DNA of 64,000 bases, taken from Candidatus Fermentibacteraceae bacterium. GTDB taxonomy: Bacteria; Fermentibacterota; Fermentibacteria; Fermentibacterales; JCC-6. This document shows positions 12,971 to 59,072 of this stretch, piece after piece (position 1 is the stretch's first letter; each line of letters starts with the position of its first letter). The notes beneath the pieces are model-generated. The model saw nothing but the letters and a program-made list of their open reading frames with translations. It made no database searches and had not been told where the DNA came from. The stretch spans positions 572-64,571 of the forward strand of contig JADGDO010000017.1 in assembly GCA_016744855.1 (NCBI GenBank). Reading direction: 5' to 3'. A program made the position numbers and the translations under genes.

Positions 12971-14653
12971 TCAGCCCCTCCCCAGGTTGTTCATGATAGA
13001 TCGGATAACTTCCCTGATACTGGAGTCGGAAAGAGGTCCAGGGTTGTGTCCCATCGCATTTTTTAACTGTTCTTCTACCCAGGTGGGATTGTATCCAGCA
13101 TCGACTTTTTCCATAAGAAGAGCTCTACTGTTCAGTAGCTTAACCAGATCAACATCAAGCCTGAGAAGCTCTGCTCTGTAATCAGGAGAGATATCCTCCC
13201 TGGCTATCCTGCCTCTATCAAGTTTACCAGAAGAAGTTCTGGGGAGACTGTTACTGAAGTAATACTTCCTCGGCATTTTAAAATCTTCCAGAATATCTGA
13301 AAGAAATGTTCTCAATTCATGCTTGGTCAGTTCAACTCCAACCGGAACAACAATAAAAGCAACAGGAGCCTCTCCTCTGCCGGGAATATCCTTCCCAACA
13401 ACACAGACATCTCTGACCAGGGGATGCTTCAGAATAGCAAGCTCAACTTCACTCGGGAAAACTTTAAGCCCGGAAGCTTTAATGAGTCCACCGCGTCTAC
13501 CGGTAAAGAAGAGTCGTTCACCCCTTCGGTTGAATATATCTCCGGTTCTGTACCAGCCATCAACAAGGATCTCTGAAAAATCAGATCGTTCCCCGAGATA
13601 GCGGTTAACTATGCCTTCTCCGGCAATCCACAACTCTCCGCGGCCGCTACCCTCTACCACAGAATTTTCTGAACGAAGCTGCACGCTGTATCCGAAAGCG
13701 ACAGAAGAAAAACCGAGCACTCCAGGGTCTCCGATTAAAACAACTCCGGAAGTTTCTGTGCTTCCCCAAACGGGTGTAACCTTTTTACCGGTTCTATCTT
13801 CAAAAACAGTAAGGAATCTGTCTGTAATCCTCATTCCCCCTGTTTCCACAATTCTAAGTGATGACAGATCTGCGTCTTCCCTGCTGGCAAGTCTGCTAAG
13901 TGCGTCCAGCTGAGGGGGTAACCCCATAAGGAAGGTTACCTGATTCTCCCTGATCATTTTTATATGCTGCCTTGGATAAACTGATGGTTCAAGAACAGTG
14001 GTTGCACCTATATAAAGACCACGCATGAAAATCTCATGAGGATGTCCGACGACTCCAAAAAGTGACATAAGAACATCTTCAGTTACAAGTTCAAGGTTCT
14101 CACAGACTGCTGCAGTATTAATCATTAACTCTCGGTGTGAAGTAACAGCAACCTTCGGCAAACCGGTTGAACCACTGGTAACATTCATGTAAAACTCATC
14201 GAAAGTATCAATACGGGGACTGCCATGGAGAGAAAGGGCAGGAGTCGTTATGTCTGATCTACTGAAGGAAAGAAGTGTGCTGGCCTTCCAGGCTTCATTT
14301 TCCATTCCCTCCCAGCAAAGAACAAACCTCTTGTCCCATCTCGTGAAAACCATATCTCTATCTTCGGAAAGCCAACTGGGATTAAGGCCTAAAAATCGGG
14401 CTCCAACTTTTGATATTGCGGTAAAAGCGACGGGAAGACCACAGTTTCTCTTTACCTGCACACCGACAAGAGTTCCCTTTTCCACACCGGCAGTTTGTAA
14501 TTTGCTTGCAAGGTGCTCTGAAGCCCGGTGCCACTGGGCATAAGTCAGGGAGCTCTTTCCGTCGACTATTGCTACTTTATCTGGTGTCTCCATGGCCCAC
14601 ATTTCAAGCAGGCCATGGATAGTAAGGATTGTTCTATTCAACCTGTTTGCCAC
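12971..14653 (-). CDS. AMP-dependent adenylating ligase (acyl/aryl-CoA synthetase family) with about 65-aa C-terminal chorismate-mutase-like helical extension
   Basis: TSGSTGLPKV, WGSTETSG, YRTGD, and SSGKLDR close the ANL fold. The tail RAELLRLDVDLVKLLNSRALLMEKV...GPLSDSSIREVIRSIM follows. True start is uncertain (GTG 14653, TTG 14644 or ATG 14686). The track start 14869 reads through the zinc-ribbon repeats of the upstream gene out of frame. Confidence 0.8.
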   Translation of the reverse strand: MANRLNRTILTIHGLLEMWAMETPDKVAIVDGKSSLTYAQWHRASEHLASKLQTAGVEKGTLVGVQVKRNCGLPVAFTAISKVGARFLGLNPSWLSEDRDMVFTRWDKRFVLCWEGMENEAWKASTLLSFSRSDITTPALSLHGSPRIDTFDEFYMNVTSGSTGLPKVAVTSHRELMINTAAVCENLELVTEDVLMSLFGVVGHPHEIFMRGLYIGATTVLEPSVYPRQHIKMIRENQVTFLMGLPPQLDALSRLASREDADLSSLRIVETGGMRITDRFLTVFEDRTGKKVTPVWGSTETSGVVLIGDPGVLGFSSVAFGYSVQLRSENSVVEGSGRGELWIAGEGIVNRYLGERSDFSEILVDGWYRTGDIFNRRGERLFFTGRRGGLIKASGLKVFPSEVELAILKHPLVRDVCVVGKDIPGRGEAPVAFIVVPVGVELTKHELRTFLSDILEDFKMPRKYYFSNSLPRTSSGKLDRGRIAREDISPDYRAELLRLDVDLVKLLNSRALLMEKVDAGYNPTWVEEQLKNAMGHNPGPLSDSSIREVIRSIMNNLGRG

Positions 14654-15779
14654 AATCGGGGCAAAACTTACTGCCTGCAGGAACATCGGCACCACATTCG
14701 CACTTTGCTCCTCCACCCATTTTGGTTCCGCATGCAGGGCAGAATTTGCCTCCGGCAGGTACGGGTTTACCGCAGGAAGGGCAGCTCTCGGCAAGAGGCT
14801 TTCCGCATTCAGGGCAGAACTTACCGTCCTGTACGGATTTTCCACAAGCAGGGCAGGCAACCAGTGCAACAGCTGCTGCTGCAGGCTGAGCGGCAGCCCC
14901 CGAAGCCCCTGCAGCGCCGGCCTGAGGGGTCATTGCCTGACCCATCTGATTAGCCATTACCATACCCATTCCAAGACCTGCACCCATGCCCACTCCAGCT
15001 CCTGCCGCTCCACCGGCTCCGGCCTGAGCAGCGTCACCCATTGCTGTGGCAGTTTTAAATCTCATGTATTCATTCATGTCGCCAAGTGCACCCATGGCGC
15101 TTCTCTCATCAATACGCTTCTGAACTTCCTCAGGTGGAGTAATAGCGCTGATGTAAAAATCGACAATCTGAATGCCGTATTTGCTGAAGTCATCGGTAAA
15201 TCTTGCCTTGGCAAGAGTACCGAGTTCATCATAATTCGCGGCAAGATCGAAAATGGTGCTGATGGTTTCACCGAGAAGATCAGCCAGGCGACTGATAATA
15301 TTGTTTTTAAGAAAGCTTTCGATATCTGCTGTGGAATACTTACCCTCTGTTCCAACAAGCTTGTTAACAAACAGCATACTATCGATAATCTTCATGGAGA
15401 AGTTACCGAACGCACGAAGTCTGACCATTTTCAACTCGGTGTCACGGAAGATTATGGGCTCTTTCGTGCCCCACTTCATATCTGTAAAAGTCTTCTTGTT
15501 TATGTAGTAAACCTCTGCACGGAAGGGAGTACCGCTTCCGCTAAAAGCCATATCAGCAAGACCTGCCAGAATAGGGACGTTCTGGGTTGTAAGTGTGTGC
15601 CTTCCAGGCCCGAGAACATCCATTGCCTTGCCATCACGGTAGAAGACCGCTTCCTGGCTTTCTCTAACAACACACTGGCTCCCAAGACGGAACTCACCTG
15701 AGCCGTTCTCAGGTATTCTGTGTGCCATATCTTTTCCGGTGTTATCAAGAAATTCAATTATTTCCGGTCTTTTAAACAT
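14634..15779 (-). CDS. SPFH/band-7 domain protein (YdjI-like) with Gly/Ala/Met-rich linker and three C-terminal zinc ribbons
   Basis: N-terminal about 245 aa is SPFH-like (FRAEVYYINKKTFTDMKWGT..., IQIVDFYISAITPPEEVQKRIDERSAMGA). The C-terminus has three CPxCG-x7-9-FCPxCG units. GGAAGGA SD. Confidence 0.85.
   Translation of the reverse strand: MFKRPEIIEFLDNTGKDMAHRIPENGSGEFRLGSQCVVRESQEAVFYRDGKAMDVLGPGRHTLTTQNVPILAGLADMAFSGSGTPFRAEVYYINKKTFTDMKWGTKEPIIFRDTELKMVRLRAFGNFSMKIIDSMLFVNKLVGTEGKYSTADIESFLKNNIISRLADLLGETISTIFDLAANYDELGTLAKARFTDDFSKYGIQIVDFYISAITPPEEVQKRIDERSAMGALGDMNEYMRFKTATAMGDAAQAGAGGAAGAGVGMGAGLGMGMVMANQMGQAMTPQAGAAGASGAAAQPAAAAVALVACPACGKSVQDGKFCPECGKPLAESCPSCGKPVPAGGKFCPACGTKMGGGAKCECGADVPAGSKFCPDCGKQVE
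14637..14855 (-). repeat. tandem in-frame coding repeat encoding three zinc-ribbon units
   Basis: CPACGKSVQDGKFCPECGKPL / CPSCGKPVPAGGKFCPACGTKM / CECGADVPAGSKFCPDCGKQV. The nucleotide-level repeat creates long spurious ORFs in other frames. Confidence 0.8.
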
Positions 15780-15791
15780 GACTTATCCTTC

Positions 15792-16316
15792 CTAATCAAT
15801 AGGTGTATTATTTTGAAGGTCGACCATCAGAGAACTTCGGCCCTCAAGCTTGTGAATGAAGTCATCAAGACCGGCTATTGCCACCTGAAGGGCTCCTTTG
15901 ATGCCAGTTCCGCTCTCAACGGAAGCTCCAAGTGTCTCAAAATCCACCTGCATCTTCTCCACATCCTCGGTGAGCGAACAGTCGAATTCGTAGAGTTTGT
16001 CCAGCTCGTTTTCCTGCACTTTGTGCATATCAAACCAGCCTCTGTAACCCCTCGAAGCAAACCTGACCTTGTCTGCAGCTAGCTCGAGCTTCTTTGTAAG
16101 CCTGCCAAAACCGCTGGCTGCTGTAAGTGCTTCTGGACCTTTAAGGTCTGCAAGACCACCCACAGCTATAGCTAAAAGGCCTTCAATCTTTGCTGCAAGC
16201 ATTGCCCTGAAAAGAGCATCATTGTCTCTTCTTTCCTCTTTACCCTTGTACCCCTTGTATCCTGGAATAATCCTTATTGCCTTTTCCAGGAAATTAAGCT
16301 GTCTTCCGTCACTCAT
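15792..16316 (-). CDS. hypothetical helical protein coupled to the SPFH gene
   Basis: Start set at MSDGRQLNF (GGAGG SD 5-6 nt upstream). 174 aa, predicted helical/coiled (IIPGYKGYKGKEERRDNDALFRAML..., ELDKLYEFDCSLTEDVEKMQ). Stop is 12 nt before the SPFH start. Confidence 0.6.
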   Translation of the reverse strand: MSDGRQLNFLEKAIRIIPGYKGYKGKEERRDNDALFRAMLAAKIEGLLAIAVGGLADLKGPEALTAASGFGRLTKKLELAADKVRFASRGYRGWFDMHKVQENELDKLYEFDCSLTEDVEKMQVDFETLGASVESGTGIKGALQVAIAGLDDFIHKLEGRSSLMVDLQNNTPID

Positions 16317-49026: not shown

Positions 49027-50853
49027 TTACCTGGTAACCACTATTCGCTGTGCAGCTGTGCCATCAGCACTTTGCATAACAACAGCATATGATCCTGCAG
49101 GAAGAGCCTCTACCATTCCGGTGTACTCTCCGGCAGCAATATTACCTTCATTAATAACAGAAACAGATCTTCCTGTTACATCATAAACAGCAATACTTAC
49201 AGGTCCTGATTGCTCAACTCTGTAGCCAATGGAAAAAGCACCTGCAACAGGGTTGCCTGAAGTAACCCAAATAAGTCTTCCATCAACAGGAGCACTAGTG
49301 TCTCCCTCAATACTTACTGGGTTCCAGAGAATAGCAACATCTTTAAGAGATGGAGTAATATTAGGGTTGCTTGTTGAGAGCTCTACCTGATACTGAAGGA
49401 ACTGTCCGCCCTGTGCAACAACTGAACCCAAATCTCCTGAAGATGTAAGCCATGCACTCCAGCTGCCCATACTACTTGAACTGTATGAGGTCTTCAGTCT
49501 GACTCTAATTGCTGTACCTGTTGGAATAGTAGCAGACCAGTGCAGGTAATCCCACAGAACATTGCCGGGATTAGGTGGCTCTATGTTAAGAATCGAGCTT
49601 GTAAGAGCACTAGGAGTAGTGAACCCGCTTACTCTCCACCAGCTGGTCTTGTCACTGAAATAACCGCAACCAAGAACGTCAGGTACCTGATCTCCATCCA
49701 TGTCACCGACAGATACACTAATGGCACCGTTAAAGTTGGCAACTACCGAGTGAGTATCCCAGTTTTCTCCAAGGTATTCACTGTTCTTGCACCAGACAAT
49801 TCTGTCTTCATCTAAACTGGCTGCAAGAAGCTCCGGATATCCGTCACCATCCATATCATGGCCAACTATATCTGAGATTCCCTGAGCTCCTGCTCCGATC
49901 ATATCATGAGAAACCCATGTGCTCTGTGTATCGAGGTAATCATACCAGTGAAGGTTTCCGTCGCCAGCAGAAGATGCAACCGCAAAATCAGCAGATCCAT
50001 CATTGTTGTAATCGGCTACTGCGACTGATACAGGAGCATTAAAAGAAGATTCGATCGTATTTTTGTTCCATGAGTAGCCATATGGAGATTGAGAGAGATA
50101 TGCAACGATATCATCCTGATTTTCACTGGTTGCAACAACATCAATGTGTCCATCGTTGTTAAAATCTCCTACATCGCAAGCGTAAGCCTGGATAAGAGCT
50201 CCATCTATATAGTTCTGGGTCCATGACGAAGCGGATCCGTCATTACGCCACCAGCAAACATCTCCGGAAAGACTGGAGACGCCGACAATATCTGGGTTTC
50301 CGTCATTGTCTACGTCAGCAGTTCTGATCTGTCTTGCATCAAAATTGGAAGCTACTGTAGTAGGTAGAGCCCATCCCGAGGGGGAATAGTTGAATAACAT
50401 TATCTTATTATCTGCTCCGCTGGATGCGGCAATATCTTTGTATCCATTTCCATCAAAATCAGCGACTGCGATGAATCTTGGGTTGGATACGGTACCAATT
50501 GAATGCTTAGACCATGCTGTACCCATTCCATTGGTATTTTCACTCCAGAACACTTCACCGGAGTTATATGCACAACATGCTGCATCCAAATCACCATCCT
50601 GATCGATGTCAACTGAAACAACATATACAGGTCCGTCTGCAGAGGAAATCGGATTCTCATCCCTATTGACGATAAGCTTCAACTGTTCCGGAGTCGTATC
50701 CCAGTCCATATCTCCGGCAATGTAAAACGTGTCACTCCAGTCTGTTACAGGCCCAGCAACTCCCGGCCCTCCGACCCAGTCAGTTTGGGTTTCACTACCT
50801 GCAAAAGCGGTGAAACAAAAACCGAATGCGAGAATTAAAAACAGCATCCTCAT
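49027..50853 (-). CDS. FG-GAP/VCBS repeat secreted protein with T9SS type-A C-terminal sorting domain
   Basis: Signal peptide MRMLFLILAFGFCFTAFAG. Repeated DxDxDGxxD...FG-GAP units. C-terminus VSIAVYDVTGRSVSV...LPAGSYAVVMQSADGTAAQRIVVTR. Confidence 0.85.
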   Translation of the reverse strand: MRMLFLILAFGFCFTAFAGSETQTDWVGGPGVAGPVTDWSDTFYIAGDMDWDTTPEQLKLIVNRDENPISSADGPVYVVSVDIDQDGDLDAACCAYNSGEVFWSENTNGMGTAWSKHSIGTVSNPRFIAVADFDGNGYKDIAASSGADNKIMLFNYSPSGWALPTTVASNFDARQIRTADVDNDGNPDIVGVSSLSGDVCWWRNDGSASSWTQNYIDGALIQAYACDVGDFNNDGHIDVVATSENQDDIVAYLSQSPYGYSWNKNTIESSFNAPVSVAVADYNNDGSADFAVASSAGDGNLHWYDYLDTQSTWVSHDMIGAGAQGISDIVGHDMDGDGYPELLAASLDEDRIVWCKNSEYLGENWDTHSVVANFNGAISVSVGDMDGDQVPDVLGCGYFSDKTSWWRVSGFTTPSALTSSILNIEPPNPGNVLWDYLHWSATIPTGTAIRVRLKTSYSSSSMGSWSAWLTSSGDLGSVVAQGGQFLQYQVELSTSNPNITPSLKDVAILWNPVSIEGDTSAPVDGRLIWVTSGNPVAGAFSIGYRVEQSGPVSIAVYDVTGRSVSVINEGNIAAGEYTGMVEALPAGSYAVVMQSADGTAAQRIVVTR

Positions 50854-50935
50854 ATAAAACCCCCGTTTAAATGTTAGCGTACGATTCATCGTTATTATGC
50901 TATCTAAATTGGTTCGGGTCAATATCGAATACAGG

Positions 50936-54305: not shown

Positions 54306-54367
54306 CTATATCTCCTTTATTTATGAGTTTCTTCAATGTGCTACTTTAGGACAGTTCCGGCCTGCGG

Positions 54368-55057
54368 TCAAGTTCTACGACTATAGTAATCTACTATTCC
54401 ATCCCATTCTGGTGTCGATCTTCTAAAAAAAGCGACTCCCGTTTCGGCGATGAAGACCTTCTCGACTTCGAGAAAACAAGGCAGAATTACAATAGCGGTT
54501 TTTACTGAAGAGAGTACAATCTCAATTTCAGCAATCCAATCTGCCTTCTCGGTTTCCTGACCTACAGCGACGCATCTTGCTAGTACCGCTGCATCCATTG
54601 GAGAAATTGATCCACCGCATATATCGGGAAGTGAATTACCGGACTCAACTACAGGAGGCAGATTTGATATATGCTCAGATAGATTCACTCCGATTCCAGG
54701 TAGACCATCTACCGGAAAGGCCGGGAAGAGGAATGTTCGTTTTTCCGCAAGACCACCTGTCTCACTCTTTTTTTTGGCAAGAACATCTTCTTCGTAGCTG
54801 CTACCGAATCTGAGCATTGTTGTGGTAAACTCATTTCTAACTGTTCTTTTTAAAACATGAGTAGTTGCCTTAACCATCCAGAATGGAAGAGGTAGAGAGG
54901 AATCAGCGGAGGCTCTGCACTGTATCTCGAGAGGTTCAAGCCCCTTGTCTCCATTTGACCATCCACTTCCGCAATTACTGCAAAAGAACAATCTGTCCCG
55001 TCCGAGCCCTGAAAGAATGCTGCCACAATTGCTGCATACCAGTCGGGTAATTCTCAT
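54368..55057 (-). CDS. zinc-ribbon protein C of a three-gene paralogous cluster (soluble), unknown function
   Basis: Start at MRITRLVCSNCGS (ATGA overlap with the upstream stop). CxxC-x14-CxxC and an LPFWMV motif. No TM segment. The track start 55240 is an out-of-frame run through the upstream gene. Confidence 0.6.
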   Translation of the reverse strand: MRITRLVCSNCGSILSGLGRDRLFFCSNCGSGWSNGDKGLEPLEIQCRASADSSLPLPFWMVKATTHVLKRTVRNEFTTTMLRFGSSYEEDVLAKKKSETGGLAEKRTFLFPAFPVDGLPGIGVNLSEHISNLPPVVESGNSLPDICGGSISPMDAAVLARCVAVGQETEKADWIAEIEIVLSSVKTAIVILPCFLEVEKVFIAETGVAFFRRSTPEWDGIVDYYSRRT

Positions 55058-56094
55058 ATAAGGCTGTCCATCCCGGCATTCTTTTTTGCCATTTTCAAAA
55101 ATCTGGCTGAAACAGCCCCAAGTCCGTAAATTGAAAGAATTACAAACATCAGAACAGGACCAGCTTGAAGAAGACCGGAGAACAAAAGCAAAATGAGGAT
55201 TGGAACAAGACCGGCCCACACACTTCCCAGAACCTGACACACCTTTTTCCAGTGATCTGAGTCAGGGGGGAATACACCTTTAAGAATCTTTCCCGAAAAA
55301 CCGTCGACAACAATCCGGTAAGCCTTTTCATTAAGCATGTACTCAACAACCCATAACGGGTAATGAACAAGTTTTTCCCTTGTGCCCGTAACTGCAAGAT
55401 ACATTGAGCGCTGTTCAAGACCGACACCTGAACCGGCAAGAATTCGCTGAATATACTTCTCAGACTCTTCTTTAGCCTGATTTATCGATACTGCAGGATC
55501 CACAACATGTGCTTCTCGAGGGAGAGTTTTGGAATCGAAGATTTTCAATGGTAATCTTGATTCTTTCCCAACAAGTACCATTCCTGAAAGACCCATTTGT
55601 GAAGACGCACCGAGAGAAGGTATACCGAGAGGTTCAAGATGAGCGGCACTCACAACAACTTTGAAACCATTGCTTATCTGATGTTCCTCAGCGCGTATAC
55701 CCTTCCGCTGCTTTATTGTTCTGACTAAATTTGTCTGGGGACCACCTCCCTCGTTATCTGCAGCAGAGATGACTTTGCGTTCTTTATAAACTGGTTTTAC
55801 ACCGAACACATAACCGTCCACGCGGCAAGAAAGAATCCAGAACGGTACATACGATAAAAAAGGCTTTCTTACTCTGCATCCGGAGAAAACTCCTGAAGAC
55901 ATTTCCTCAAGCTTACGACGAACAATCCGAATTGCATCTGTGGAAGTGATTTCCGATTCCAGAATGTATCTGTTAACAACACCTTCAAGAAGCAGAGGAG
56001 TGTCGCAATTAAGACAAACTGTATTTGTGTTTCCTTCGCTCACTTCCAATAGCCCTGCACAGGATGGGCAGGAGAGTGTTAAAAGATCACTCAT
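55054..56094 (-). CDS. zinc-ribbon protein B of the cluster, C-terminal double TM anchor, unknown function
   Basis: MSDLLTLSCPSCAGLLEVSEGNTNTVCLNCDT (CxxC-x14-CxxC). YVPFWIL and HYPLWVVEY...VVDGFSGKI motifs. Hydrophobic tail VWAGLVPILILLLF...VLMFVILSIYGLGAV. GGGAGGGG SD. 8-nt overlap with gene A. Confidence 0.65.
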   Translation of the reverse strand: MSDLLTLSCPSCAGLLEVSEGNTNTVCLNCDTPLLLEGVVNRYILESEITSTDAIRIVRRKLEEMSSGVFSGCRVRKPFLSYVPFWILSCRVDGYVFGVKPVYKERKVISAADNEGGGPQTNLVRTIKQRKGIRAEEHQISNGFKVVVSAAHLEPLGIPSLGASSQMGLSGMVLVGKESRLPLKIFDSKTLPREAHVVDPAVSINQAKEESEKYIQRILAGSGVGLEQRSMYLAVTGTREKLVHYPLWVVEYMLNEKAYRIVVDGFSGKILKGVFPPDSDHWKKVCQVLGSVWAGLVPILILLLFSGLLQAGPVLMFVILSIYGLGAVSARFLKMAKKNAGMDSLI

Positions 56095-56743
56095 CTTTCC
56101 CCTCCCTGCTCGTCAGTTTTTTGAGTAACCTGGGGGCAAGTATGGCGGAGGTCATTCCCAGAACAGAAGCCCAGAAAACGGAAACACCCTTAAGAAGGAA
56201 AAAAACCAGGAGAGTTGGAACAACTGCTATTTTGAAAGCGGACAATGCTTCGCGCAGGGGGTCAAATGAACTTTGTCCATCCGAGTTCGCCGGGGCACCG
56301 GGTATTCTGCCACTGACGCCGTCAACGATAGTACCTAGAGCTGAAGCAGCATTAATCGCTATCCAGAATGGATGGTAGAGTACTCCCGCCTCTCCAACAA
56401 GGTCGGGATCAACTGGAACAATTGTTCCTTCTGCCTCTGCCTCATCCCAGATACGCCGATCGGATGATGGCGGTGAATAGTGTTCCATTTCTGCATAAGG
56501 TTGGGTAAACACCCTATGGAGGGTATCAGGATCGTATGGGAACCAGTAAAGAGAGACAGATGCAACACTGCCGGAGGAGAAAAGACGCAAAACATCATCT
56601 TTGTTCAGCGCGGGTCTATGGAGAAAATTGTTCCCCCTGTAACCGGCAACTACAGATCTGGATCCGCAGTAAAGACATGTGATGTATGCATCCGGAGAAG
56701 TAACGGCGAGAAGAGCTCCACACTGTTTGCACTGAAGTTTCAC
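56087..56743 (-). CDS. zinc-ribbon protein A of the cluster, C-terminal TM anchor, unknown function
   Basis: KLQCKQCGALLAVTSPDAYITCLYCGS (CxxC-x14-CxxC), YHPFWIAI...IVDGVSGRI, and hydrophobic tail IAVVPTLLVFFLL...VFWASVLGMTSAIL. The track start is TTG 56773. GTG 56743, about 10 nt after GGAGG, seems the better start. Confidence 0.6.
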   Translation of the reverse strand: MKLQCKQCGALLAVTSPDAYITCLYCGSRSVVAGYRGNNFLHRPALNKDDVLRLFSSGSVASVSLYWFPYDPDTLHRVFTQPYAEMEHYSPPSSDRRIWDEAEAEGTIVPVDPDLVGEAGVLYHPFWIAINAASALGTIVDGVSGRIPGAPANSDGQSSFDPLREALSAFKIAVVPTLLVFFLLKGVSVFWASVLGMTSAILAPRLLKKLTSREGKDE

Positions 56744-56810
56744 CAGCAAACCACCTCCGAAGAATAGCTGCAACTCCTAGAAAAAAACATAACCGTACTG
56801 ATGTGCTCAG

Positions 56811-56841
56811 CCAGAGGCGACAATTTCATTGCCGCCTCTGG
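56811..56841. other. long hairpin downstream of the carboxypeptidase gene (possible terminator)
   Basis: ccagaggcgacaat-ttc-attgccgcctctgg, with one internal mismatch. The minus-strand T7 run lies about 27 nt further downstream, so this is not a canonical intrinsic terminator. Confidence 0.35.
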
Positions 56842-56849
56842 AATTTAAT

Positions 56850-59072
56850 CTATCTAACTGCAGTGACTACTCTCTGTACAGATACACCAGAAGTTGTTTC
56901 CAATCTTACAAAATGAATACCGGCAGGAACAGACTGGGTATCCCAAATTACATTTCTGTAACCGGATTCGTCGAGAGATGTAGTCAGATCAGCAATTTGC
57001 CTTCCCGATACATCATAAACAGTAAGAGTTGCTGAATCAGCATCTCCCACAGAAATTGTAACTGGAATTGTGGCATGTGCAAAAACCGGGTTAGGTGTGA
57101 TAAGTCCAAGAGATGAAATCTGTGGGGTAACTCCCTCTTCAGCTCCACTAACACCGGTGGTGCTTACCTGTGCACTTACAGCTTCAGAAGCCCATCCGGG
57201 GCCGAAGTCATTATCAATGGTCCAAACTCTGAAGTAAAAATCACCGTTGTTTAGAGCAGTAACATTATACTCTGAAACAGCAAGATCTTCAGCATGGATT
57301 TCGTTGTCTTCCCATACTTCAATCTTGATGTCATCGATGTAAAGCTTGCATGAAGAGCTGCTTCCATAGCTTTCCCAGCGGAACATGACTGTCTGTCCCT
57401 GGAATTCATCCAGCTCATGAATGTTGAAACGCCAGGTCATATCATCACGGCCAAAGGTCTGAAGGTAATACCAGTTAGCACCGGCATCAGGGCTGTATGA
57501 GAATGCTCCCTGGTAACTCTCTGGAGTGATGTCCTGCTCCGACCAGAAACTGATTCTTCCTCCACCATTGGAAGGAATAGTTACAGATTCCTGCCATGTC
57601 ATCTGACCGGTTCCGTTTGAAACATAGCTCTGAGTACCACTGTGATGCTGACTTGTTGTCATTATCCAGCTTACTTTGTCGAAAGGACCACTATCTCCGT
57701 GATCGTCTAGAAGAAGCTGATACTCACTCAGTTTCTGAAGCACATAGGTATCTGCATGAGCTGCATCATTCCAGTTAATTGTAAAAGGAACACTCACGGA
57801 TCCGATATCATCTACAACAGGTACTCCTGGTTCGTGCGGGTCATAGGCACAACCTGCAAGAAGTGCGGTAACCAGATAGCTTCTCAGGTTTCTTCGGGAA
57901 AGTCCCACAACTTCGGATGCTGTTGGCCAGAAGCCAGCATTAGATGTGCCAGTCTCATGGTTCCAGCTCATTGCTCCGTAAAGACCGTAAGCATGATCTC
58001 TTGTATTACCTCCGGAAGCACCGAAGATCGAGGAAGGATAGTGCTCTTCTCCTGTGGCCCACTGAACCATCATCTCGCCCTGAGTACTGTAGGCAGCTGC
58101 GTTAGTTGTTGGGTTGCTTGTGTAGCCCCAGGGGTAGATCAGAACATTGCTGTAGGTGTGAGTGGAATGCATCTGTGTTGGAATATGACCCTGCCAGAAT
58201 GCATCAATGTTCGAACTTTCAGGCTCGGAAAGCGGTCCGGTTCCGCCATAAGTCTGTGAACTTGGTGAACTGCTTGAACCGGCTCCACCCCAGTCGACAG
58301 ACCAATTTCTGTTTAGATCCACTCCATCGCCGCCTGCAGTAAAATTCAGGTTTTTACGATGCATACCACCGCCACCTGGGGATGTTGATTCATTGTATAC
58401 CCAGCCATCAACATTATTCACCGGCAAACACCAGATTTCTCTGTTCTCGAGAATCCAGGTAGCCTGATAGCCGCTGTATCCGTTTCTCTGATAATTAGAG
58501 CAGAGCCACATCATCCAGTACCTGACATTCCTCATCGCTGCACCCTCACGAGCATGAATAAGACCATCATACCATGCATTTGCCATGGAAGGATCATCAT
58601 CGCCAAAACTGTTGTTAACAGAAATCTTAACAACCCTCTGAGGCCGCCCCTGATAGGTGTCACCGATTGATTCAGTGGAAGTAATGGAGGGATTTGCAGC
58701 AACAAGAGAATCTATCCAACCGTCAACTTCATCCCATGTATAAAATCCGCCCATTGAACGGGTTGAACCATTACGGGCCCGGTAGAAACTCTGCATATCA
58801 GCAATTCTCACTGTCGAGGTAAAACCATACTCCAGAAGGCGCTGACGTTCAAATGAATTTGCAACAAAGTCAACTGAGCCATCGTTATAGGTTTGAACAA
58901 TATCAAAACCCATCCTGTCAAACATCTCAGCTTGTCTCTCTGAAGATGGCTGGAAATTCATCAATGAATATATTTCGTTACCATACATAAATCCTGATAT
59001 AATCAACAATATTATCAAATACTTCAAATCAAACCTCCTGTAATAGTATATTCTAACGAGAAAAGCAGTCAT
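56850..59072 (-). CDS. M14 zinc carboxypeptidase with T9SS type-A C-terminal sorting domain
   Basis: M14 features (FYTWDEVDGWIDSL, GLIHAREGAA, HSTHTYSNVLIYPWGY). Additional beta-rich domains. C-terminus LTVYDVSGRQIADL...VPAGIHFVRLETTSGVSVQRVVTAVR. Confidence 0.85.
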   Translation of the reverse strand: MTAFLVRIYYYRRFDLKYLIILLIISGFMYGNEIYSLMNFQPSSERQAEMFDRMGFDIVQTYNDGSVDFVANSFERQRLLEYGFTSTVRIADMQSFYRARNGSTRSMGGFYTWDEVDGWIDSLVAANPSITSTESIGDTYQGRPQRVVKISVNNSFGDDDPSMANAWYDGLIHAREGAAMRNVRYWMMWLCSNYQRNGYSGYQATWILENREIWCLPVNNVDGWVYNESTSPGGGGMHRKNLNFTAGGDGVDLNRNWSVDWGGAGSSSSPSSQTYGGTGPLSEPESSNIDAFWQGHIPTQMHSTHTYSNVLIYPWGYTSNPTTNAAAYSTQGEMMVQWATGEEHYPSSIFGASGGNTRDHAYGLYGAMSWNHETGTSNAGFWPTASEVVGLSRRNLRSYLVTALLAGCAYDPHEPGVPVVDDIGSVSVPFTINWNDAAHADTYVLQKLSEYQLLLDDHGDSGPFDKVSWIMTTSQHHSGTQSYVSNGTGQMTWQESVTIPSNGGGRISFWSEQDITPESYQGAFSYSPDAGANWYYLQTFGRDDMTWRFNIHELDEFQGQTVMFRWESYGSSSSCKLYIDDIKIEVWEDNEIHAEDLAVSEYNVTALNNGDFYFRVWTIDNDFGPGWASEAVSAQVSTTGVSGAEEGVTPQISSLGLITPNPVFAHATIPVTISVGDADSATLTVYDVSGRQIADLTTSLDESGYRNVIWDTQSVPAGIHFVRLETTSGVSVQRVVTAVR

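Follow-up and report, generated by a model that had tools for sequence, protein, structure and literature searches.

A three-paralogue, SamG-type zinc-ribbon module in a Fermentibacterota genome and its proposed partnership with a soluble SPFH protein

In Bacillus subtilis, genetics and microscopy showed that the membrane foci of PspA and of YdjI, a soluble SPFH protein, depend on YdjG and YdjH (PMC8581546). A 2026 preprint renamed YdjG/H/I SamG/H/I and proposed that SamGH signals and is restrained by SamI (10.64898/2026.02.06.704340); SamG and SamH are required for the membrane localization of SamI and PspA (PMC8581546; bioRxiv 10.64898/2026.02.06.704340). YdjG was described as a protein with two zinc ribbons, a YpeB-related NTF2-like domain, and a transmembrane (TM) segment (PMC11237479). 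Here we report on three minus-strand genes, designated A, B, and C, in a 64-kb window (the whole stretch of contig JADGDO010000017.1 that was analyzed) from a Candidatus Fermentibacteraceae bacterium. Their products very probably belong to the YdjG/SamG family, as judged from sequence profiles, and this large family is uncurated, with no Pfam or NCBIfam model. New here is the finding that the SamG-type anchor occurs as a module of three paralogues and that this module is associated, across phyla, with an SPFH protein of the SamI type and with a second small protein, X (Table 1).

Curated resources assigned no family to A, B, or C. In Pfam and NCBIfam, zinc-ribbon matches below threshold and a weak PepSY match (in B) were all that was found, PADLOC models gave no match at E <= 1, and a sequence-profile search of the PDB recovered zinc-ribbon proteins only (e.g., LysW, RpoP, and eS27). 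Foldseek found no match at E <= 0.001 when the B model was compared with the PDB or the C model with the PDB and BFVD; matches to pore toxins, DTD, and rhabdovirus G were rejected as noise. Word-seeded searches found the three proteins only in metagenome-assembled genomes of Candidatus Fermentibacteria/Sabulitectum, where the best non-self matches showed 80-88% identity and carried consecutive NCBI locus tags, which assigns the window to that phylum; 43 orthologues of A were found in the Fermentibacterota. When an alignment of B was used in a full HMMER scan of 1.84 billion representatives, 2,630 clusters (counted at 50% identity) were obtained at E <= 1e-3, 522 of them at E <= 1e-10. Typical members are 320-380 amino acids (aa) long with an N-terminal ribbon, an [FY]VPFW strand, and a hydrophobic C-terminus, and the hallmark of the family is YYPLWxxRYxYxGRxYxxxxDGxxGxxxxGxAPG. 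Pfam analysis of 37 divergent B relatives gave no family besides zinc ribbons and a weak PepSY signal. Among the clusters looked up for taxonomy, one traced to a Bacillota metagenome-assembled genome. One relative, P0172 (558 aa), has its B-like core after ~240 residues that resemble, by eye, a protein-kinase C-lobe and a P-loop (GEPGIGKT), and could be either a genuine fusion or a gene-calling artefact.

YdjG was brought into the comparison by retrieving the B. subtilis pspA-ydjGHI operon from a metagenome via the published ydjG primer (PMC8581546). The protein aligned with a family profile built from 37 sequences, B among them (hhalign 98.7%, E 3e-16, 261 columns), scored 82.5 bits over residues 51-337 against a hidden Markov model (HMM) of 132 representatives, and was matched in three segments by the Fermentibacterota B profile (E 2e-13, Z=1), while Pfam recognized its ribbons only. 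The HMM of representatives also matched A at E 6e-14. A's own profile meets YdjG in the zinc ribbons only; A is linked to YdjG via B, and C via broad profiles. YdjG is laid out as two ribbons followed by ...MYIPFWMF..., ...YVLLPVWMVSYDYERAEHIFAMNGQTGKVVGKPP, and the TM segment, and the core that it shares throughout with the family comprises an N-terminal zinc ribbon, a helix, an I/VPFW strand, an insertion, a second helix, an LPVW...NGQTGKV hairpin, and a C-terminal TM anchor. An earlier sequence-only reading of this locus had found no recognizable family for the three proteins, which holds for Pfam, NCBIfam, PADLOC, the PDB, and Foldseek but not for the 2,630-cluster family that includes YdjG/SamG. 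The same reading had named a match to a characterized family as evidence against itself, and such a match was found in part, YdjG/SamG being partly characterized.

Pairwise BLASTP comparisons of A, B, and C were almost blank, with little beyond the ribbon, and paralogy was visible with profiles only. The A profile aligned with that of the B family over the whole length of A (hhalign 84%, 179 columns), leaving an insertion of ~120 residues in B. With Fermentibacterota sequences only, the C-B match spanned the ribbon plus the first PFW strand (94%, 66 columns), and broad profiles that included other phyla (73 C-like and 132 B-like sequences) extended the match to 195 columns (96.9%, E 2e-10), pairing C 3-201 with B 4-259. 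This longer match places C's PAF strand, G-L-P-G loop, long helix, and 'LWILP' strand opposite equivalents in B and identifies C as a divergent third copy. On these alignments all three proteins are paralogues of one another, as the sequence-only reading had proposed, with similarity beyond the zinc ribbon for both A-B and C-B, and C is a truncated copy that has lost the membrane anchor.

The CxxC-x14-CxxC spacing, seen earlier by inspection, was confirmed by script in all three proteins (A, C5/C8/C23/C26; B, C9/C12/C27/C30; C, C8/C11/C26/C29). The family alignments of A, B, and C show little or no variation at any of the four cysteines, and an N-terminal CxxC...CxxC is kept in 126/132 distant relatives with lengths of 300 aa or more; Pfam ribbon models scored A, B, and C below their cut-offs. 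Following the ribbon, A has a reduced YpeB/PepSY-like core and a C-terminal hydrophobic hairpin. B has a helix, a very long β ribbon, a helix plus sheet bearing YPLW...DGxSG, and two C-terminal TM helices, and C has a PFW strand, a PAF strand, a helix, and a β hairpin, with no TM segment. The P-[FL]-W and VDGxSG motifs described before are present (YHPFWIAI and VDGVSGRI in A; YVPFWIL, HYPLWVVEY, and VDGFSGKI in B; LPFWMV in C), but the profile alignments pair YHPFW of A with the second motif of B (HYPLW) rather than with YVPFW, and LPFW of C with the first.

Hydrophobic tails were located by script at residues 165-203 of A and 284-333 of B, and the AlphaFold2 (AF2) model of B (predicted local distance difference test [pLDDT] score, 76.7) has C-terminal helices at 279-305 and 312-339. 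In the AF2 model of C (pLDDT 82.5; predicted TM-score [pTM], 0.80), the one stretch of hydrophobic residues (175-204) is predicted with confidence to be a β hairpin, and C is for this reason considered soluble. The C-terminal TM anchor of the SamG family is therefore present in A and B and absent from C, in agreement with the earlier prediction of two hydrophobic hairpins and one soluble protein. The insertion in B (79-149) is modeled with good confidence as a two-stranded β ribbon (79-112/121-149) of ~30 residues per strand, which A and C do not have, and its tip is net basic, with 9 K/R against 4 D/E.

The three genes overlap as described in the sequence-only reading, by 8 nucleotides (nt) and 4 nt, with a 62-nt gap to yebC. 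The A/B overlap is ATGAGTGA, and the 3′ end of A reads GATGAGTGA, which encloses the ATG of B (56094); the B/C overlap is ATGA, and the 3′ end of B, ATATGA, encloses the ATG of C (55057). Gene A starts with GTG, 10 nt downstream of a GGAGG sequence, and its orthologues share the MKLQC start.

To what extent this unit is conserved was examined by a genome scan that found 345 species, the best 80 of which were all Chloroflexota, mostly Anaerolineae. An A-like gene lay directly upstream of B and a C-like gene directly downstream in 66/84 fetched loci, mostly from Anaerolineae, a count that derives from crude open reading frame (ORF) calling and HMMs and in which several of the remaining loci have a contig end beside B. 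The commonest B/C junction among these loci was again the 4-nt overlap. Further triads were found in L089 (a contig of low GC [guanine plus cytosine] content that also encodes TonB and ExbBD), L092, L093, L094, and the P0189 contig, and L090 has a B-C pair only. Conservation across phyla shows that the A-B-C arrangement is far beyond chance; the triad, with recurrent start/stop overlaps, is kept as a unit in Fermentibacterota, Anaerolineae, and further lineages, as had been anticipated for related genomes. Additionally, an 842-aa HerA/DUF87-like ATPase is encoded after the triad in 18/81 mostly Anaerolineae loci.

A different form of the unit occurs at L095:797-7681 (GCA_016926595.1), which contains two tandem pairs, each consisting of an A-like gene and a gene for a ~605-aa fusion protein (P0188 and its neighbor). 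Each fusion joins a B core, four hydrophobic segments, and a C domain in one polypeptide, and this Rosetta-stone arrangement argues for a hetero-oligomer. With an even number of TM segments between them, the B core and the C domain would face the same compartment. In the window, A, B, and C have no signal peptide, each begins with its zinc ribbon, and basic residues flank the hairpin anchors of A and B. Based on these features and on the even TM count of the fusion, we infer that the entire soluble mass lies in the cytoplasm, anchored at the inner membrane face.

Similarity to YpeB and PepSY (PF03413) is seen in the hairpin motif of the core (aromatic-P-hydrophobic-W ... DG-x-[ST]G-x-[IV]) and in its helix-on-sheet units. 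PepSY domains are typically extracytoplasmic, whereas the domain of the triad is predicted to be cytoplasmic, and its strands are greatly elongated. Residues 239-272 of B missed the PepSY threshold (E 0.15; 12.8 vs. 24 bits), a single one of 37 relatives reached E 0.004, and YpeB and a PepSY-like lipoprotein were among the non-significant Foldseek matches. These weak signals agree with the description of the YdjG core as related to YpeB and NTF2-like (Ravi et al., 2024).

A search of all ORFs in the window with YdjI and with proteins of the triad locus L003, where the gene immediately upstream of the triad encodes a Band_7_1 SPFH protein ending in a zinc ribbon, identified an X-SPFH pair on the same strand as A, B, and C. 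This putatively linked pair (14634-16316) had not been picked up by the sequence-only reading. The SPFH protein consists of a Band_7_1 domain (Pfam, 6e-63), a SamI-like G/A/M-rich linker, and three double zinc ribbons, with no TM segment, and was matched by phmmer to B. subtilis YdjI (7e-38) and to the L003 SPFH protein (1e-105). Because it has the architecture of SamI and no TM segment, it would need an anchor. X is orthologous to the 175-aa protein whose gene precedes the SPFH gene in L003 (phmmer, 7e-19) and matches the first gene product of five-gene clusters (E 1e-21 to 2e-24). Judged by eye from its sequence, X is probably helical; it showed no similarity to Pfam, PDB, or PspA sequences and had one weak, sub-threshold match, to NCBIfam LIMLP_15305.

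Three separate clusters at 50% identity (L003, L087, and L091) have the five genes contiguous and co-directional, in the order X-SPFH-A-B-C. HMM and phmmer comparisons support the assignments, with E values of 1e-111 to 1e-119 for SPFH, 1e-17 to 1e-40 for the A-like proteins, and 1e-12 to 1e-45 for the C-like proteins. In the genome represented by the window, the five-gene cluster is split into two pieces. A classical Band_7 (PF01145) gene fragment also occurs two genes upstream of the triad in L094 (L094:108-665); it was not taken as support for the SPFH link, being of the PF01145 subtype and not of the SamI type.

Set beside YdjG/SamG, whose gene in B. subtilis is two genes from ydjI, the triad is similar in having a predicted cytoplasmic domain tethered by its C-terminus and, in L003, L087, and L091 but not in the window, in being adjacent to the gene for a soluble SPFH protein with Band_7_1 and zinc-ribbon domains. 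It differs in composition, as YdjG is a single-copy protein whose zinc ribbons number two and which has one TM helix, whereas the triad comprises two hairpin-anchored paralogues and a soluble one, with one ribbon each. The partners differ as well: those of YdjG are the TPM-domain protein SamH and PspA, whereas no TPM or PspA gene is near the triad, and its SPFH partner is accompanied by X, a different small protein. The arrangement also resembles NfeD-stomatin, HflK/C-FtsH, and QmcA-YbbJ, in which the positioning or regulation of an SPFH scaffold falls to a dedicated membrane partner encoded beside it. The anchor here is related to NfeD in neither sequence nor fold and would be formed by zinc-ribbon proteins, and the SPFH protein is of the soluble Band_7_1 subtype.

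The analogy with B. subtilis SamG and the conserved gene neighborhoods lead us to propose the following model. A, B, and C would be translated from a single message, in which stop and start codons overlap, and may assemble beneath the membrane as a hetero-oligomeric platform that A and B anchor and on which C docks. The platform would recruit or regulate the SamI-like SPFH protein and X, and might serve in membrane organization or envelope-stress maintenance. On balance, we favor this whole chain, a SamG-type sub-membrane platform that docks an SPFH protein, with moderate confidence. Of the membrane-associated hetero-oligomeric module suggested earlier, the membrane association is supported, and a hetero-oligomer is probable. 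More tentatively, and with somewhat less than even confidence, we suggest that X-SPFH-A-B-C may be a widespread, previously undescribed, PspA-independent machine of five components, in which a heterotrimer of SamG paralogues receives the Band_7_1 SPFH protein and X, and that the Bacillus SamGHI system may be a derived, simplified offshoot of it.

Several observations weigh against SPFH docking. The triad and the X-SPFH pair are 38 kb apart in the window rather than adjacent, and X or a SamI-like SPFH gene was found within 7 kb of the triad in 0/80 Anaerolineae loci. A phmmer search of the window with B. subtilis PspA and YdjH gave no PspA or SamH (TPM) homologue, so that the components expected of a PspA/phage-shock system (PspA and a Bacillus-type SamH) were not seen within the 64 kb. 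In B. subtilis, two-hybrid contact with SamI and PspA came from SamH and not from SamG (PMC8581546). SamG itself is only partly understood in function, and the long, basic β ribbon of B has no assigned role.

Alternatively, the triad may be an autonomous SamG-like complex that acts independently of SPFH proteins, either as a stress sensor or signaling unit at the cytoplasmic face or as an envelope or lipid assembly factor. Most triads, including all of those in Anaerolineae, have no SPFH neighbor, which also counts against docking. In 37/81 mostly Anaerolineae loci, the triad is followed, ~1.7 kb past the start of B in L005-L084 (e.g., L025:8568-9704), by a gene for a PLDc_2 (HKD phospholipase-D-like) protein whose N-terminal part has a hydrophobic segment. 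This neighbor hints at lipid metabolism, and in the proposal for Bacillus it is SamGH that signals, SamI merely restraining it (10.64898/2026.02.06.704340). However, X-SPFH-A-B-C recurs in divergent lineages, both gene sets are present in the window, and scans of curated libraries detected no signaling output domain in A, B, or C. We consider an SPFH-independent role less likely than docking, though plausible.

The position of the triad in front of yebC, ruvC, ruvA, ruvB, and queH (Pfam assignments) could instead point to a membrane-tethered nucleic-acid-binding module that works with YebC and RuvCAB, its zinc ribbons and the β ribbon of B contacting DNA. The genes are co-directional across the 62-nt gap, in which a terminator scan found no terminator-like hairpin (54306-54367) and where the single promoter-like match (54371-54343) was at background level. 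The order A-B-C-yebC-ruvCAB-queH is retained in a distant Fermentibacterota lineage whose B is only 47% identical, the tip of the B ribbon is basic, and TFIIB-type ribbons often bind DNA (PMC9239133). On the other hand, the adjacency is absent from every lineage examined outside the Fermentibacterota, A and C are without the ribbon insertion, no DNA-binding family rose above threshold, and the characterized homologue works in membrane stress and not in DNA metabolism. Because the yebC-ruv synteny is limited to the Fermentibacterota, a DNA-repair role was rejected as the primary explanation and is judged very improbable, and the link to yebC-ruvCAB-queH drawn in the sequence-only reading does not extend beyond this phylum. 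Finally, a membrane-inserting barrel (a pore, toxin, or defense effector) formed by oligomerization of the long β hairpins of B, as the top Foldseek matches of its model (gamma-haemolysin, LukGH, and aerolysin) might suggest, deserves hardly any credence, given that these matches are insignificant (best E 0.039; TM-score <= 0.15; root-mean-square deviation ~20 Å), that the hairpin is charged (K/R/E-rich) rather than amphipathic, and that a chromosomal module conserved across phyla, in a housekeeping-gene context, has no PADLOC match.

Table 1. Positions in the window of the triad, its flanking intergenic regions, and the proposed partner genes
Feature	Position	Strand	Basis
Gene A: short SamG/YdjG-like paralogue, 218 aa	56087..56743	-	ORF and motifs
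Gene B: full-length SamG/YdjG-like protein, 346 aa	55054..56094	-	ORF, AF2 model, profile search
Gene C: divergent third paralogue, predicted soluble, 229 aa	54368..55057	-	ORF, AF2 model, profile comparison
C-yebC spacer, 62 nt, containing the yebC Shine-Dalgarno sequence	54306..54367	-	Read from sequence
Intergenic region upstream of A: 12-bp hairpin, then T-run, then GGAGG	56744..56849	-	Read from sequence
SamI/YdjI-like SPFH protein, soluble, 381 aa	14634..15779	-	phmmer, Pfam
X, 174 aa, just upstream of the SPFH gene	15792..16316	-	phmmer

Upstream of gene A, a perfect 12-bp inverted repeat (CCAGAGGCGGCA/TGTCGCCTCTGG; 56790-56830, minus strand) lies right behind the stop codon of an M14 peptidase gene, with a T-run ~25 nt further on. 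A simple terminator scan missed this hairpin, as its T-run is not adjacent to the stem. The repeat is probably a terminator that divides the triad operon from the upstream M14 gene and marks the boundary and start of the operon. The M14 carboxypeptidase (56850-59072, minus strand) has a tail ('VYDVSGR...') similar to that of an FG-GAP repeat protein (49027-50922, minus strand) with a Por_Secre_tail domain, a sorting domain of type IX secretion, which suggests that cargo of the type IX secretion system is encoded on either side of the triad operon. On the same strand, 12971-14869 encodes an AMP-binding (acyl/aryl-CoA ligase-like) enzyme whose C-terminal tail weakly resembles a type II chorismate mutase (E 6e-4, below threshold).

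Soluble Band_7_1 SPFH proteins of the SamI/YdjI type are common, and their route to the membrane is known from one Bacillus operon only. SamG is seen here as a member of a very large, uncurated family, usually an ordered set of three paralogues, in which those members that carry any name are all called 'hypothetical'. The A/B core, C, X, and the SPFH subtype are four protein families that merit curated models. Taken as a whole, the repeated occurrence of the set of three beside an SPFH gene and a second partner provides a testable model of how SPFH proteins may be docked in several phyla, uncultured ones included.

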